Shown: in pieces, positions 34,647-41,590 of the stretch
Numbering within the stretch: the first letter of the stretch is position 1
Layout of the letters: each line of letters opens with the position of its first letter
Origin: a virus
Taxonomy: Duplodnaviria > Heunggongvirae > Uroviricota > Caudoviricetes
Length of the DNA stretch: 41,590 nucleotides
IMG/VR virus record: IMGVR_UViG_2585427774_000008
Strand: one strand, 5' to 3'
Translations under genes and position numbers: made by a program
The notes under the pieces: model-generated
Databases searched by the model: none
What the model was told of the DNA's origin: nothing
Seen by the model: the letters and a program-made list of their open reading frames with translations, nothing else

Positions 34647-35537
34647 GTGGGTACAAATAAGAACGGAATTCGATATAGCGCACTTTTTCTTTCCGGGTTG
34701 CTCTTATCCGGGGGCGCGAGTGCAGGCTTTAATTCCGCGCAGAACGCTGAGTACAAAAGACGTCCAGGATGGCAGCCGATAGTAATTTTATCGACAGATG
34801 ATTGTCAGACATGGAAATCTAAAGGGAAGTCACTAATTGACTGGAGTGGCGAGATCTGTGGTCCTGACGGGTTGATTAAGGCAATCAATAAAAAGCCGGA
34901 GAATATACCAGCTTTTTATGCTGCATATCATGAGTACGGCACAGGTGGAGTTAGGGCTATCGATGTAAGAGATAATTCTCAGCTAAATTATCTCAATTTT
35001 GTAAATGATTTAGCTAAGAAACTTTCTTCTTCGGCTGTTGTATTAAAGATTTATGATGATTATATCATTGATAGAAAACCCATGGGGCTTGCAGAGGTTT
35101 CACGAGAAAATTTTGTAAAACAGCTAAATGAGTTATCGCTGAAGCAACCTGCCATCTATCAAAAAATGAACGACGTAGCCAAGGCTGATTACGAGAAAAG
35201 TAGTAATGTTCACAGTAACGAAAAGCTTGGCGTGAATTACAAAACAGTCTGTGGTCCTTATACGATTGATCTGTCTTCTGCTGATGGTTGGGCCAGAATT
35301 AATGGCGCAAAACCAGAGACGCAAAAAATTAGCCCAATCGGCTCTGGTGGTAGCACCAAAGGGGAACCGGATAACATCAAGATGGAGTGGATGGCTGCCA
35401 CTAATCAACCCGGCCGCTGGGTTGGGCTTGAGTACATCAAGCGCAACGGAAAAGCTATTCTCAACGCACAGTGGTTGCAGGCCAGCATAGACGCGCCGCG
35501 CCAGTATGCAACATACGACTGCCGAAAAGTAAAATAG
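34647..35537 (+). CDS. Secreted/periplasmic protein with signal peptide (moron), function unknown
   Basis: 296-aa ORF from GTG with AGGAGG SD; N-terminal signal-peptide-like MGTNKNGIRYSALFLSGLLLSGGASA; four Cys; region appears AT-rich. Confidence 0.6.
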   Translation: MGTNKNGIRYSALFLSGLLLSGGASAGFNSAQNAEYKRRPGWQPIVILSTDDCQTWKSKGKSLIDWSGEICGPDGLIKAINKKPENIPAFYAAYHEYGTGGVRAIDVRDNSQLNYLNFVNDLAKKLSSSAVVLKIYDDYIIDRKPMGLAEVSRENFVKQLNELSLKQPAIYQKMNDVAKADYEKSSNVHSNEKLGVNYKTVCGPYTIDLSSADGWARINGAKPETQKISPIGSGGSTKGEPDNIKMEWMAATNQPGRWVGLEYIKRNGKAILNAQWLQASIDAPRQYATYDCRKVK

Positions 35538-35555
35538 CCCGCCAGATAGGCGGGC
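35537..35555. terminator. Hairpin between convergent genes
   Basis: gcccgcc-agata-ggcgggc inverted repeat. Confidence 0.4.
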
Positions 35556-35560
35556 ATGCG

Positions 35561-35851
35561 TCAAAAATATTGAGCTTTAATTATAATAAACACAATAATT
35601 ACGAACAGGATGTTTCTAATTATTTTTTGCTTATGAGTAAGTTGTTTTTTTTCTGTCGATTTCCCGGGAGAGTAAAGGTTAGTGGTATGCGACAGCCCCG
35701 TGCCGGGAAGGCCATTTGTCATCTTTACGCCTTTTTTCCCGATGTTAATGGTGGAACCTTTACCACCAATTGAAGTGCTTACTCCGCTTTTACTAATGTT
35801 GATCGCGAGTCCGGGCGCAATCCGGATTCTTTTACGAAATCTAAATCCCAT
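35561..35851 (-). CDS. DUF4236-like small membrane-anchored protein
   Basis: 96-aa ORF with AGGAG SD; N-terminus MGFRFRKRIRIAPGLAINISKSG recalled as DUF4236-type; C-terminal TM helix ILFVIIVFIII. Confidence 0.55.
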   Translation of the reverse strand: MGFRFRKRIRIAPGLAINISKSGVSTSIGGKGSTINIGKKGVKMTNGLPGTGLSHTTNLYSPGKSTEKKQLTHKQKIIRNILFVIIVFIIIKAQYF

Positions 35852-36940: not shown

Positions 36941-37039
36941 ATGGGCGAAAAACTACCCAACTGGAAATTCTTCCTCATCTGGGCCGTGTTCTTTTTATTC
37001 GGTCTGTCAAGCGTTATTAGCGCTATACGCTGGTGGTGA
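36941..37039 (+). CDS. Small transmembrane peptide, doubtful
   Basis: 32-aa ORF not in track (MGEKLPNWKFFLIWAVFFLFGLSSVISAIRWW) with GGGAG SD. Confidence 0.3.
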   Translation: MGEKLPNWKFFLIWAVFFLFGLSSVISAIRWW

Positions 37040-37042
37040 TTT

Positions 37043-37396
37043 ATGCGATACAGACGTGAAGACGCCGACGGTGATTACACTTTCGGGCAGGGTGACGATA
37101 CTTTCCTTATCGACAGTCCGGAATGTGTCGCCCAGGCAGTAAAAACCCGCTTCGAGCTGTGGCGCGGTCAGTGGTTTCTCGATCTGACGGAAGGCACGCC
37201 GTATGTTCAGTCGGTGCTTGGTAAACAGCGATCTGACGTCTACATCCTGGCTATACGTGAACGCATACAGGACACACCGGGCGTTCTGTCGATTCTTTCC
37301 TTCGATACCAATTATGACGGCACCAGCCGTCGCGTCACCTTCACTTCCTCCATTGACACAATCTACGGCCAGACGACTGTAACAAGCGAGGCATAA
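37043..37396 (+). CDS. Baseplate protein, gpW/gp25-like
   Basis: 117-aa ORF; size and position before J-like gene. Confidence 0.6.
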   Translation: MRYRREDADGDYTFGQGDDTFLIDSPECVAQAVKTRFELWRGQWFLDLTEGTPYVQSVLGKQRSDVYILAIRERIQDTPGVLSILSFDTNYDGTSRRVTFTSSIDTIYGQTTVTSEA

Positions 37397-38596
37397 ATGG
37401 CTTTGAACCTCGACACGCTGGGGCTATCGGCAACGGTAACCGCCCAGGGGATTAGTGCGCCTGATTACCAGACAATCCTAGATACACTGACCAGCTATTT
37501 CAGGCAGATTTACGGTAGTGATGCCTACCTCGAACCAGACAGCAAAGACGGGCAGATGGTCGCGCTGGTGGCTCTTGCCGTGCATGACGCTAACAACACC
37601 GCTATCGGGATCTACAACTCTTTTTCACCGACGACAGCGCAGGCCGCAGCGCTTAGCAGCAATGTGAAAATTAACGGGATCACGCGAAAAGTAGCGACAA
37701 ACTCTACAGCTGACCTTCTGTTAACCGGTACGGCAGGCACGACTATCTCGAATGGTTCTGCACGGGATAAAAACGGCATAATCTGGAATTTTCCAGCGAG
37801 TGTAGCGATCGACGTTGATGGTACTGTGCTGGTGACGGCCACATGTGCGAATAGCGGTTCGGTTGCGGCGATGGCCGGGACTATCACCACCATTAACACA
37901 CCGACTCGCGGCTGGGTGTCGGTAACCAACCCGGCTGCGGCTACTGTCGGTTCACCAGCAGAAACCGACGCAGAGCTGCGCATTCGGCAGGGGCAAAGCG
38001 TAGCGCTATCATCGATCACACCGTTTGAAGGCGTCGACGGTGCGATCGCCAACGTTGCGGGCGTGACACGTCACAAGCTCTACGAAAATGATACTGGAGC
38101 AACCGACAGCAACGGGTTGCCACCGCATTCAATTTCCGCCATCGTTGAGGGAGGGGATGTTACTGAAATAGCCCAGACCATCAGGGGGAATAAAGGGCAG
38201 GGAACCGCAACTTACGGTACAACTTCTGTCACCGTGCCGGATACTTACGGTAATCCTCACGTCATCAGTTTTTCGCGTTCTACCGATGTGCCAATTTTTG
38301 TAGCCATTACCCTGAAAGTTTTTACCGGGTATACATCTCAAATCGGCGAGCAGATAAAACAGGCTGTTGCCGATTATATAAATGGCCTGGCAATTGGCGA
38401 TGACGTTCTGCTGAGTCGTATTTATTCCCCGGCAAACCTTGGCGTGGTAAGCGGAGGCAGTGCTCGCTATTACGACATTCAGGAGCTGCTCATCGGCAAA
38501 TCCTCTGACTCAGTCGCAAGCGGAAATATCGATATTGCTTATGACGAATCTGCGTCATGCGTTGCGAGTCACGTCACTATCACGGTGACCTCATGA
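37397..38596 (+). CDS. Baseplate protein J-like
   Basis: 399-aa ORF between W-like and I-like genes. Confidence 0.65.
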   Translation: MALNLDTLGLSATVTAQGISAPDYQTILDTLTSYFRQIYGSDAYLEPDSKDGQMVALVALAVHDANNTAIGIYNSFSPTTAQAAALSSNVKINGITRKVATNSTADLLLTGTAGTTISNGSARDKNGIIWNFPASVAIDVDGTVLVTATCANSGSVAAMAGTITTINTPTRGWVSVTNPAAATVGSPAETDAELRIRQGQSVALSSITPFEGVDGAIANVAGVTRHKLYENDTGATDSNGLPPHSISAIVEGGDVTEIAQTIRGNKGQGTATYGTTSVTVPDTYGNPHVISFSRSTDVPIFVAITLKVFTGYTSQIGEQIKQAVADYINGLAIGDDVLLSRIYSPANLGVVSGGSARYYDIQELLIGKSSDSVASGNIDIAYDESASCVASHVTITVTS

Positions 38597-39273
38597 GCAA
38601 ATACACCGAACTGATCACTAACTACCATGCTACCAAGCCACTCTTTTTTGACCATATAGATCTGAGCACCCGCCCGCTGATTGATGTGTCCAGCACTATG
38701 TCAGGGCTTGTAACAGCCTTCGATATCGATACGGCGGTTGGCGTGCAACTCGATATCCTCGGCCTGTGGATTGGGCGTAGTCGTATAGTCAGCCAGCCAA
38801 TTAGCGGCGTTTATTTCAGCTGGGACACTGACGGGCTCGGATATGACCAGGGCATCTGGCAAGGGCCATATGATCCTGATTCTGGCTATACGACGCTGAG
38901 TGATGAGACGTACCGCATCATTCTGAAAGCGAAAATCGCTATCAACAACTGGGATGGTCGGAACGACTCTCTGCCTCCCATCCTTGACGCTGCTACCGCA
39001 GGCTCTGGACTGAAGATGCAGATCGTCGATAACCAGGACATGACGATATCGGTCTGGGTTTTTCCCGAGACTGATATTTCTGATGTGTCACTCGAACTGA
39101 TAGCCGCTATCAAACAGGGTTATCTCACCGTTAAAGCTGCTGGTGTATGGGCTGGCGGCGTTGAAACACCCTCAGTCGAAACACCGTCCGAAGGAACAAA
39201 ATTCTTTGGATTTGACATGGATAACGAATACATCGCCGGTTTTGATGACGGCGCATGGGGGAGATTACTTTAA
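38593..39273 (+). CDS. Baseplate/tail protein I-like
   Basis: 226 aa from ATG at 38593 overlapping J stop. Confidence 0.5.
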   Translation: MSKYTELITNYHATKPLFFDHIDLSTRPLIDVSSTMSGLVTAFDIDTAVGVQLDILGLWIGRSRIVSQPISGVYFSWDTDGLGYDQGIWQGPYDPDSGYTTLSDETYRIILKAKIAINNWDGRNDSLPPILDAATAGSGLKMQIVDNQDMTISVWVFPETDISDVSLELIAAIKQGYLTVKAAGVWAGGVETPSVETPSEGTKFFGFDMDNEYIAGFDDGAWGRLL

Positions 39274-39935
39274 TGGCTGGAACTAATGATTTTAAAGCGT
39301 TTGCGACAGATGCTAATGCAAATGTTACCTCGCAGGAGGAATGGGAGACGCTAACCGCACTGAAGAAAGGATTCTCCTCGGGTAAAGCATCCAGCGCACA
39401 GGTCAGTAAAGCGCTGCGCCAACCGTCGACGATGGCGGCTGTACTGGGGCAGTTTATCGCGAACGCCGAACTGGACGCGCTCGATGATGGTGACGTTGAT
39501 GGACTGGTGGCAAAGCTGGCGACAGCGATTACCACAAACCTTGGTCTGGGAGAAATTGCCACTGTAGCTGATATTCAGGCTGGTACAGCCAGTAAGTTGG
39601 TGGATGCGGAGGGGCTAAAAAAATACCTGCCAACGAAAGTAATGCAGGTATCCGGTTTTATTCGAATTCCTGACGTTCCTGGTGGGACCATAATTCAGTG
39701 GGGACAAGTTACAGAAACCATAAATGAGGGGACTAAAAACGTGGTATTACCCACGCCATTCCCTAATTCTGGACGTTTTGCAATTGCAATTCCTTTGAAT
39801 CTTGCAGGGGATACCTCATGTGACATTTTTGCACAATTACAAAGTGCATCCCTTACGGGAATTAATTTCTTCTTTTCCTGGGTGTCCAGTTCAACCCCGG
39901 CAAATGGTTTCCAATGGTTCGCAATAGGATATTAA
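39273..39935 (+). CDS. Tail fibre protein (constant N-terminal part plus variable C-terminal part)
   Basis: 220 aa from ATG at 39273 with GGGAGA SD; conserved N-terminus MAGTNDFKAFAT...; 3' half appears AT-rich; contains candidate recombination site. Confidence 0.7.
   Translation: MAGTNDFKAFATDANANVTSQEEWETLTALKKGFSSGKASSAQVSKALRQPSTMAAVLGQFIANAELDALDDGDVDGLVAKLATAITTNLGLGEIATVADIQAGTASKLVDAEGLKKYLPTKVMQVSGFIRIPDVPGGTIIQWGQVTETINEGTKNVVLPTPFPNSGRFAIAIPLNLAGDTSCDIFAQLQSASLTGINFFFSWVSSSTPANGFQWFAIGY
39529..39554 (+). promoter_or_regulatory. Candidate invertase crossover site (left), hix/gix-like
   Basis: TTACCACAAACC-TT-GGTCTGGGAGAA; left half matches hix half-site consensus TTATCAAAAACC at 10 of 12 positions; same TT core as right site. 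Confidence 0.5.
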
Positions 39936-39936
39936 A

Positions 39937-40368
39937 ATGAGAGCGTATTTTATTCCATCGGTACCAACATTCATTTCTGAATCATGGAAAAGTGACGGTA
40001 CCTATACAAAAGAAAACTGGCCCTCTGATGCTGTGCTCGTTACCGAAGAAGAGACTGCTGAATACTGGATGACCATACCACCTGATGGGAAAAAACTTGG
40101 TGCTGTGGATGGGAAACCAGCGTGGGTTGATATTCCGCCCCAGACCCGGGAAGAATTGATTACGACTGCTGAGAATGAACGTCAGCGGCTGTTGGCTCAC
40201 GCTGATGCGATGATGCTCGACTGGCGTACAGAATTAATGCTGGGAGAAATCAGCGACGCCAACAAAGCAACATTGTCGGCGTGGCTGGCATATAAAAACG
40301 ATGTGAAATCGGTTGATGTGACAATCGACCCTGAGCATGTTAGCTGGCCTGTTCCCCCGGAAGCGTAG
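39937..40368 (+). CDS. Tail fibre assembly protein (Tfa)
   Basis: 143-aa ORF directly after fibre gene; C-terminal region typical of Tfa chaperones. Confidence 0.7.
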   Translation: MRAYFIPSVPTFISESWKSDGTYTKENWPSDAVLVTEEETAEYWMTIPPDGKKLGAVDGKPAWVDIPPQTREELITTAENERQRLLAHADAMMLDWRTELMLGEISDANKATLSAWLAYKNDVKSVDVTIDPEHVSWPVPPEA

Positions 40369-40690
40369 GCCATACGGGTTTTGCTGTATCAACTCGCATC
40401 AGCAAGACCCGGTATTTTTTCCATTCAGAAAGCGCGGCGGTTTCCTCATCAGTCGAGATACCGGCATCAACCGCATCCTGTCGCCAGGCTATCTCGGCGT
40501 CAGCAATGGCTCGTAATTGCAACTTATTAGCTTCGGCTTTCTCGATCAATTCTGCCTGCGACGGTGGATGATTTAATATTGAATTAACCTCATCTTCCGT
40601 AATTTCTTTTTTATTACCAATAAACTTATCTTGTGAACCGTCATCCTCATAGGCATAAATTATATCTGCATCATCGATAAAATACTTCAT
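40340..40690 (-). CDS. Alternative tail fibre assembly protein (Tfa')
   Basis: 116-aa ORF convergent with Tfa; MKYFIDDADIIYAYEDDG...KKYRVLLMRVDTAKPVWPTLP. Confidence 0.7.
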   Translation of the reverse strand: MKYFIDDADIIYAYEDDGSQDKFIGNKKEITEDEVNSILNHPPSQAELIEKAEANKLQLRAIADAEIAWRQDAVDAGISTDEETAALSEWKKYRVLLMRVDTAKPVWPTLPGEQAS

Positions 40691-40989
40691 CTTAGCTCCC
40701 TCCAGTTTACACTTGAGATACCAGTGGTAATAACCTGGTAGGTGGAATTATTGGGAATAACGGGGCAATAACCTCCTGCGCCACTTATTGTCACACCATT
40801 TATTCGGACATTCACAGACCAGCTTGCTGATGGTCGGACAAAATCAAGCAATAACTGAATTGGTTTTCCTGTTGTGTTTGTGTAAACCACTCCAATACTT
40901 CTACTTGATGTCATGTCTTGCCATGTCTGATCAACTCCGAGGCTTACTTTTGCAGCTTCTCCCAATTGAACCTTTTTTATAACCATCAA
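40687..40989 (-). CDS. Alternative tail fibre variable C-terminal segment (S'v-like)
   Basis: 100-aa ORF; N-terminus KKVQLGEAAKV parallels NLGLGEIATV in the + strand fibre at the left crossover site. Confidence 0.55.
   Translation of the reverse strand: MMVIKKVQLGEAAKVSLGVDQTWQDMTSSRSIGVVYTNTTGKPIQLLLDFVRPSASWSVNVRINGVTISGAGGYCPVIPNNSTYQVITTGISSVNWRELR
40957..40982 (-). promoter_or_regulatory. Candidate invertase crossover site (right), hix/gix-like
   Basis: Minus strand reads TTATAAAAAAGG-TT-CAATTGGGAGAA; about 60 nt upstream of the invertase ATG. Confidence 0.5.
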
Positions 40990-41041
40990 AAATCTGGTGA
41001 TGCTTCGCCGTTTCTCCTGTTTTCATAACAGGAGAAATCCC

Positions 41042-41590
41042 ATGATTTACGGTTATGCCCGAGTATCAACAAACCACCAGGACACTGAATTGCAACTAAC
41101 GGCGCTCAAGTCAGCGGGTTGTGAGAAAATTTTTGAAGAGCATGCCAGCGGGAGGAAATCGAATCGGCCGGTTCTAAAACGGCTGATCGCCACTATGCAG
41201 CCGGGGGATGAACTGGTGGTCTGGAAGCTGGACAGGATAGGCCGCAACGTTCTGCATGCGCTGTTGATGTTCCAGCAGTTACAGGAAAAGGGTATCAACT
41301 TCCGCAGTATTACCGATGGCGTGGATCTCAAAACAGCCAGCGGCCGCTATAAATTTCGTAACATCCTTTCCGCAGCACAATATGAATCTGATCTTAATAG
41401 CGAACGTACCTTAGCAGGGCTGGCCGTAGCCAGGGCAAAAGGGCGAGTTGGTGGTCGCAGGCCTAAGTTCACGGATGAGCAATGGCGGGAAATGGGGGAG
41501 CGGATGGCAACCGGTGAATCACGACAAAGCGTATCAAAAACGTATGGAGTAGGGCTCTCAACTCTGTATAAAAAGTTTCCAGCTAGCTGA
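41042..41590 (+). CDS. Serine DNA invertase (Hin/Gin/Pin/Cin family)
   Basis: 182 aa from ATG at 41042 with AGGAG SD; strongly resembles Hin as recalled (GYARVST, LVVWKLDRIGRNV, GVGLSTLYKKFPA); stop coincides with window end. Confidence 0.9.
   Translation: MIYGYARVSTNHQDTELQLTALKSAGCEKIFEEHASGRKSNRPVLKRLIATMQPGDELVVWKLDRIGRNVLHALLMFQQLQEKGINFRSITDGVDLKTASGRYKFRNILSAAQYESDLNSERTLAGLAVARAKGRVGGRRPKFTDEQWREMGERMATGESRQSVSKTYGVGLSTLYKKFPAS

Follow-up and report, generated by a model that had tools for sequence, protein, structure and literature searches.

We investigated a 41,590-nucleotide stretch of viral DNA, IMG/VR record IMGVR_UViG_2585427774_000008 (hereafter the window, meaning the whole stretch that was analysed), which apparently represents a complete temperate myovirus prophage of Escherichia coli integrated next to yciI. 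Close to its right-hand end, a tail-fibre gene runs into a segment that holds two convergent cassettes of fibre C-terminus and tail-fibre assembly (Tfa) chaperone, is bounded by two inverted crossover sites and is followed by a gene for a serine DNA invertase. We confirmed that this segment is a real invertible tail-fibre switch, of the classical kind, in this phage. Gene order was taken from a reading of positions 37000-41590 together with the listing of open reading frames (ORFs), and gene identities from Pfam and PHROGs profile matches. The features of the locus, with protein lengths in amino acids (aa), are as follows.

38593-39273, + strand: baseplate wedge gene, DUF2612 / Phage_Wedge1 (Pfam PF11041, E 1.9e-46)
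39273-39935, + strand: tail fibre gene, 220 aa, with a tail-fibre N-terminus and a Gp53-like_C C-terminus
39273-39542, + strand: constant N-terminal part of the fibre, about 90 aa, MAGTNDFKAF...AITTNL (phrog_11303 and phrog_1396, tail-fibre N-termini)
39529-39554, + strand: left crossover site, TTACCACAAACC-TT-GGTCTGGGAGAA, with the core TT at 39541-39542
39543-39935, + strand: variable fibre C-terminus A (module A), GLGEIATV...AIGY, Gp53-like_C (Pfam PF21882, E 3.9e-13)
39937-40368, + strand: Tfa-A, tail-fibre assembly chaperone, 143 aa (Caudo_TAP, E 2.3e-23; phrog_188)
40340-40690, - strand: Tfa'-B, convergent chaperone, 116 aa (Caudo_TAP, E 3e-21)
40687-40968, - strand: silent alternative C-terminus B (module B), QLGEAAKVSLGVDQ...WRELR, a 91-aa stretch (C-terminal end of phrog_18834, E 1e-18)
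40957-40982, + strand: right crossover site, TTCTCCCAATTG-AA-CCTTTTTTATAA, with the core AA at 40969-40970
41010-41038, + strand: stem-loop, an 11-nt perfect DNA repeat giving a 12-bp RNA stem with a 5-nt loop (z -4.68)
41042-41590, + strand: serine DNA invertase, PinL type, 182 aa (Resolvase and HTH_7), ending at the last base of the window

The stop of the wedge gene and the start of the fibre gene overlap (TAATG), and module A is the C-terminus expressed in the orientation of the window. On the opposite strand, module B is promoterless in this orientation and lacks a credible start codon of its own; its stop overlaps the start of Tfa'-B, the 3' end of which overlaps Tfa-A by 29 nt. A sequence-only reading of the window had proposed this layout of fibre, Tfa, convergent Tfa', alternative C-terminus and Hin/Gin-family invertase, and the Pfam and PHROGs matches and the alignment of the invertase to Gin confirm it.

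Both orientations of the segment in public sequence data

We used the fibre predicted after inversion as a query against a collection of 5.8 billion proteins. The top match (P0001) was a protein of 183 aa with 100% identity over 100% of the predicted flipped fibre, encoded on two Logan contigs from separate runs (ERR10688734 and DRR848934), and its constant N-terminus is identical to that of the window fibre (P0121). The DNA was compared with a window inverted in silico (39543-40968 reversed): a Logan contig of 2132 bp (ERR10688734_5266, here L012) showed 0 mismatches, and the contig L013 showed 2 mismatches over 1004 nt. By blastn, positions 1-716 of L012 correspond to window 38839-39554 in direct orientation and positions 703-2132 to window 40970-39541 inverted, in both cases at 100%, and the order on the contig is fibre(B) and Tfa'(B), then the convergent Tfa(A) and C-terminus A.

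The junction in L012 reads ...ACCACAAACC-TT-CAATTGGGAGAAGC. As the parental bases flanking the TT differ on both sides (CC-TT-GG versus GG-TT-CA), the exchange is confined to the core dinucleotide, and exchange inside a 2-bp core is the product expected of a serine recombinase with a 2-bp stagger. The sequence-only reading had predicted that the frame would be kept through inversion (..ITTN-LQLGEAAKVSLGVDQ..), which proved correct residue for residue in P0001 and base for base in L012; it was equally right that both variable segments begin with an LGE(I/A)A motif.

L012 ends exactly after the AA of the second core, which is the place where the two orientation states diverge. This end may represent a branch of the de Bruijn graph, with both orientations present in sample ERR10688734, although we treat it as a hint only because the other junction was crossed without a break.

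Both states were also identified among relatives. The related E. coli prophage L025, at yciI, carries the same 1430-bp segment (99.5%) flipped and behind a divergent fibre N-terminus, with both junctions and the invertase within one 127-kb contig. PSJ-22 (L002) and isolate 44 (L009) share a cassette pair, which faces opposite ways in the two with respect to the invertase. The detection of a single orientation only, which the sequence-only reading had named as evidence that would speak against a switch, is therefore not what the public data hold, as L012, L025 and the pair L002/L009 attest.

When searched by exact pattern, the window's own alternative cassette gave no match in genome_contigs or metagenome_contigs, and in viral_contigs the sole match was the source contig, IMGVR_UViG_2609459798_000006. 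The whole internal segment was found in no E. coli complete genome, the best coverage being 44% in ECONIH5, where the copy is decayed and lies inside a P2-like prophage.

Crossover sites

The reverse complement of the right site is TTATAAAAAAGG-TT-CAATTGGGAGAA. The two 26-bp sites are inverted relative to each other around a common TT/AA core, exactly where the sequence-only reading had placed them, and are identical at 16 of 26 positions (counted by hand). We scanned the whole window with the Din crossover consensus (TTNTCNNAAACCNNGGTTTNNGANAA, 18 specified bases). The left site has 2 mismatches and is the window's only match with 3 or fewer (0.01 expected), and the right site has 6, a score no better than that of five unrelated places in the window. 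The right site is thus a much poorer hix/gix match than the sequence-only reading had suggested. The inverted repeat that the sites form (20 nt, 75%) is unremarkable among the 33 pairs in the window. Judged from the window alone, only the left site would exceed chance, and the right site would be a guess.

We accept the right site as valid because of the corresponding site in the relatives, the breaks in homology at both sites, and the flipped form of the same phage. Our comparison covered eight E. coli prophages at yciI and phage Omnitron, the flanks of which are 93-99.6% identical on both sides of the segment and the internal cassettes different, with homology stopping at both sites. Their left site is TTACCACAAACC-TT-GGTTTGGGAGAA, and their right site is TTCTCCCAAACC-AA-CCTTTTTTATAA, which departs from the Din consensus at 3 bases. 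These relatives have the inner half-site and core of e14 pix, and the outer half-sites (TTACCACAAACC and TTATAAAAAAGG) are specific to this phage family and conserved. The right inner half-site of the window differs from that of the compared relatives in three adjacent core-side bases (AAACC to AATTG, that is, ACC to TTG), a change of codon from GGT to CAA and of residue from Gly to Gln.

A third copy of TTCTCCCA, at 40241-40248 (- strand, ..MLGEIS.. in Tfa), was considered as an extra crossover site, of the kind known from the Min system of p15B. It is probably not one, as it lacks an outer half-site and three copies of this sequence are within chance (13% of shuffles).

The invertase and its predicted control

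The invertase contains the Resolvase catalytic domain (PF00239, E 2.2e-39) and a C-terminal helix-turn-helix (PF02796, E 1.5e-09). It aligns to Gin (PDB 3uj3, E 1.5e-56) without gaps over residues 1-181, with resolvases matching much more weakly (gamma-delta resolvase, E 3e-25); the catalytic residues R7, S9, D64, R65, R68, E121 and R122 are invariant in our alignment of invertases (A2). The numbering of the Hin row of A2 agrees with PMC3798978. At the protein level, the enzyme shares 99.5% identity with the invertase of mEp237 and 52-56% with Gin, Cin, PinE and Hin-like enzymes, and at the nucleotide level its gene is 93-99% identical to phi80 pinL and HK225. Judged by eye, the classical members of A2 look closer to one another than to the window enzyme, which by sequence is a Din invertase in the broad sense.

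We infer the mode of regulation of the switch by comparison with Hin. According to work from Johnson's laboratory (PMC3798978), the Fis beta-hairpin is contacted by R154 and L155 of Hin, and probably also by Q151. Inversion activated by Fis falls more than 50-fold in the L155A mutant, and R154D retains almost no activity. The same study gives residues 47, 48 and 51 in helix B, which contact enhancer DNA, as basic in 15 of 15 invertases. Relative to Hin, helix E of the window enzyme has K for F105, R for H107, I for M109 and A for L112, with the essential F106 kept; the roles of these residues are described in PMC4513852, including the barely active Hin F105K. At the positions of Hin Q151, R154 and L155, in helix 1 of the DNA-binding domain, Q, R and L occur in each of the six classical sequences of A2, whereas E, E and R occur in the window enzyme (W148-REMGERMAT-G158) and the rest of its clade. 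The basic helix-B positions are kept as K46 and R47, and the third is A50.

We take the Fis cores of the enhancer to be two in number, about 48 bp apart and in the 5' part of the invertase gene, their positions being partly assumed. The proximal Fis-like 15-mer (GTATCAACAAACCAC) keeps G..C at -7/+7, and the distance from the centre of the right site to its core, about 100 bp, is the classical geometry. The distal 15-mer (CAGCGGGTTGTGAGA) has C..A, as against G..C in seven of seven classical genes. The motifs ATTTA and TAATG lie between the Fis cores (PMC3798978), which corroborates the assumed positions in part. Nucleotide differences among PinL-type genes fall in mosaic patches and are uninformative on constraint at the enhancer.

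The sequence-only reading had implied that inversion depends on Fis. With E, E and R at the Fis-contact positions, Ala in place of the third basic residue and an altered distal core, this dependence is doubtful and cannot be assumed. The charge reversal (R154 to E, L155 to R), the loss of the distal core and the altered helix-E lock point to a further possibility, tentative and rather unlikely in our view, that the PinL type is a natural Din-like subclass free of the canonical Fis/enhancer invertasome and could catalyse occasional intermolecular exchange. If true, such exchange would explain the core-to-core block transplants and the variety of cassettes at yciI. The invertase of mEpX1 (L022, 2501-3049) is chimeric, with approximately its first 60 residues classical Din-like, a part that includes a canonical distal Fis core, and the rest of PinL type.

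No convincing sigma-70 promoter for the invertase was found in a promoter scan, in which the match count equalled the shuffle expectation. The stem-loop at 41010-41038 lies directly before the invertase ATG and holds its Shine-Dalgarno sequence (AGGAGA). Its arms are conserved in the phi80/L025 version, in which the loop and flanks have diverged, and the phi80 annotation names it IR3. The stem-loop probably keeps translation of the invertase low. It can also be read as TTCTCC-N13-GGAGAA, one base short of the spacing of the crossover sites, and a function as an operator is conceivable.

Fibre modules, chaperones and the portable block

Module B (QLGEAAKV...WRELR) is 100% identical to the C-terminus of the expressed fibres P0001, P0002, P0003 and P0010. 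It ends full-length fibres with three other N-termini, in E. coli, Citrobacter portucalensis and Cronobacter sakazakii, and is also the C-terminus of a fibre in a P2-like phage (L026), and the 116-aa Tfa' follows it in every locus examined (L012, L025 and L026). In other prophages, module A is found in expressed fibres and also, beside pin genes of the e14 type, as a silent copy. Both modules thus travel together with their own chaperones and are put to use as real fibre tips. By family assignment, the C-termini are not related to each other, one being Gp53-like_C and the other a WRELR-ending module without a Pfam match, and the two fibres would be expected to bind different receptors, or to give different host ranges. 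It had been claimed that both orientations should yield functional fibres; the in-frame fusion in P0001 and the use of both modules as real tips elsewhere uphold this, and the difference in receptor is the part that we infer.

The 1430-bp block behaves as a portable module in the sequences compared. At 99.5-99.6% identity, it is present in three backbones, namely two yciI myovirus variants and a P2-like phage (window 39541-40970; L025 3931-5360; L026 3981-5429), with homology that ends at, or a few bases from, the core dinucleotides. In L026 it adjoins a 193-aa Hin-like invertase, unlike that of the window.

In each e14-type segment that we examined (window 40340-40368; L002-L008; e14, L021 2018-2046), the two convergent Tfa genes share exactly 29 nt at their 3' ends, and a W-P-x-x-P C-terminus is encoded on both strands; Mu U and U' have no such overlap. 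The centre of the segment is accordingly a quasi-palindrome, where half-segments would be likely to reassort.

Proposed mechanism and alternative explanations

We propose, with a probability of roughly 0.88, that the segment works as a tail-fibre (host-range) switch by inversion, like the e14 P, Mu G and P1 C segments. The late operon would transcribe the fibre gene, the first approximately 90 codons of which are fixed, with codon 90 onwards lying within the 1430-bp segment (core to core, 39541-40970). This segment consists of two convergent cassettes, each comprising a receptor-binding C-terminus and its own Tfa chaperone. A small serine recombinase would make 2-bp staggered cuts at the TT/AA cores of both inverted 26-bp sites and the segment would turn through 180 degrees, so that the reading frame continues from the constant N-terminus into the alternative C-terminus (a change from GLGEIATV... 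to QLGEAAKV...), with the matching chaperone now downstream. Our data show the anatomy of the segment, its two orientation states in one and the same phage, and the confinement of the exchange to the 2-bp core.

Several points weigh against this proposal. The reciprocal junction of this exact phage (...TTCTCCCAGACC-AA-CCTTTTTTATAACC) was not recovered, L012 stopping at the core, and the protein database search gave no exact product of the reciprocal silent ORF (MMVIKKVGLGEIATV...). The evidence for both states comes from assembled contigs. The consensus match of the right site is poor, as described above, and the predicted difference in receptors has its basis in sequence. The adjacent invertase is the presumed catalyst, and another host Pin may have made the inversion.

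On this last point, a Din-family invertase of the host (e14 PinE, PinQ, PinR or similar) might catalyse the inversion in trans, the adjacent PinL being an orphan or having another role. In its inner half-site and TT core the switch resembles e14 pix, and inversion of the e14 P segment by PinQ of Qin, acting in trans, has been reported (PMC12529663); moreover, phi80 and HK225 keep a PinL-type gene beside decayed fibre fragments, without an intact segment, the same segment adjoins the Hin-like 193-aa invertase in L026, and the window enzyme has K at the position of Hin F105, where Hin F105K barely works (PMC4513852). However, an intact PinL, approximately 99% conserved, lies beside intact segments in many E. 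coli prophages, which argues for action in cis. All the catalytic residues and the essential F106 are kept, and the outer half-sites are family-specific and conserved, and we consider a catalyst in trans unlikely. A different question is what the inversion is for. Its main benefit could fall to the lysogen, if a fibre variant made by the prophage blocked receptors and hindered the adsorption of other phages, an effect reported for StfE2 of the closely similar e14 P segment (PMC12529663), and the modules of the window are shared with e14-type segments. Yet e14 is cryptic, whereas the window has an intact late operon in an apparently complete prophage close to a deposited phage genome, and each module has a cognate chaperone, as expected of virion fibres. 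We regard this as an improbable main benefit; lysogen defence and host-range switching are not mutually exclusive and may co-exist.

The two orientation states could also have arisen without inversion, had the cassette block been replaced by horizontal transfer, at or near the conserved sites, from oppositely oriented phages. The 1430-bp block is a portable unit: two other backbones carry it at 99.5-99.6%, with sequence similarity that stops at the cores. Relatives with near-identical flanks also carry many different cassettes. Against this, L012 is identical to the inverted window at all 2132 bases, while candidate donors differ at 6-7 positions of the segment, and exchange at a 2-bp core between sites sharing approximately 8-14 bp is the signature of a serine recombinase and not of homologous recombination; replacement is accordingly very improbable. 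Finally, the three right-site substitutions (AAACC to AATTG) might have inactivated the site and frozen the switch, given its 6 mismatches to the consensus and the presence of AAACC at this place in every relative examined for sites. The CAATTG half-site is, however, found in both orientation states of this phage, and also in L025 and L026. Inversion therefore happened after the substitutions, which excludes a frozen switch. The positions reportedly found critical for Hin binding by Hughes et al. in 1992 (A5/A6 and T10/C9) are unchanged here.

Comparison with known inversion systems

By its sequence and arrangement, the closest known system to the switch is the P segment of e14, with the invertase PinE, in E. 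coli K-12. The order (stfP-tfaP / tfaE-stfE'-pinE) and scale are the same, with fibres of approximately 210-220 aa, the two Tfa genes of each system converge with a 29-nt overlap, and the junction lies in ..N(L/V)GLGE..; in addition, the e14 inner half-site TTCTCCCAAACC and TT/AA core recur in relatives of the window. The systems differ in segment length (1.4 kb here, 1797 bp in e14; PMC12529663), in the outer half-sites, in the upstream baseplate gene (DUF2612 here, DUF2313 in e14) and in the state of the prophage (complete-looking here, cryptic in e14), and the window invertase is 55% identical to PinE.

The G segment of Mu has the same architecture (Sc, then Sv-U / U'-Sv', then gin), with 26-bp sites in the fibre ORF, and Gin aligns to the window enzyme without gaps over 181 residues at 52% identity. 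Mu differs in its TC/GA core, 3-kb segment and fibres of approximately 500 aa, and the Fis-contact residues and distal Fis site that are present in Gin are not kept in the window enzyme. P1 C with Cin and Salmonella Hin represent the same enzyme family and site design, the cix core being TT/AA; however, the cin gene of P1 flanks its segment on the opposite side, and Hin flips a promoter and not fibre exons. Cin and Hin are Fis/enhancer-dependent and carry Q151/R154/L155, unlike the window enzyme.

Finally, phi80 (PinL) and HK225/mEp237 have the same invertase, right-hand outer flank, hairpin (IR3) and position just before the yciI attachment site. In these lambdoid siphoviruses all that is left of the decayed segment is a fibre fragment with one site, whereas that of the window is intact and flips. 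In a limited literature search, we found no paper on this prophage family or on the activity of PinL.

Prophage context

Other prophage genes identified in the window encode a tyrosine integrase (1-1194), portal, major capsid protein, DUF3383 sheath and SLT tape measure. The genome of Citrobacter phage Omnitron, deposited as complete and circular, covers 74% of the window at 95.5% identity, and the structural module is related to that of Salmonella phage SEN34. An identical region is present in the NCBI E. coli assembly GCA_000703985.1, with yciI and tonB directly after it, and the fibre protein is deposited under E. coli 2-210-07_S4_C2. The window spans exactly from the start codon of the integrase to the stop codon of the invertase. 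The arrangement of invertase, attR and yciI matches that of lambdoid phi80, HK225 and mEpX1; as this order is common to a myovirus and siphoviruses, it points to one shared module of integration and invertase.

Between the baseplate hub and spike (gpV-like) genes, we identified an ORF of 296 aa (34647-35537, + strand) with a signal-peptide-like N-terminus and no Pfam match, and beside it a DUF4236 ORF (35561-35851, - strand). Both seem to be missing at the same place in prophage L025, and together (34647-35851) they look like a moron insertion.

Implications

The segment provides a sequence-level example of host-range switching in a widespread family of temperate myoviruses of E. coli and Citrobacter, with both states recovered from public data and the crossover mapped to 2 bp, and indicates that such switches can be called correctly from raw sequence. 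For annotation, short ORFs labelled 'gp53-like' or 'hypothetical' beside these recombinases are silent fibre exons and not independent genes. Only two leads go beyond the ordinary, namely a clade of invertases that may act independently of Fis and a cassette block that is portable and bounded by the cores. An invertase clade without the Fis-contact signature thus offers a natural test case for the control of directionality and for the movement of fibre cassettes.

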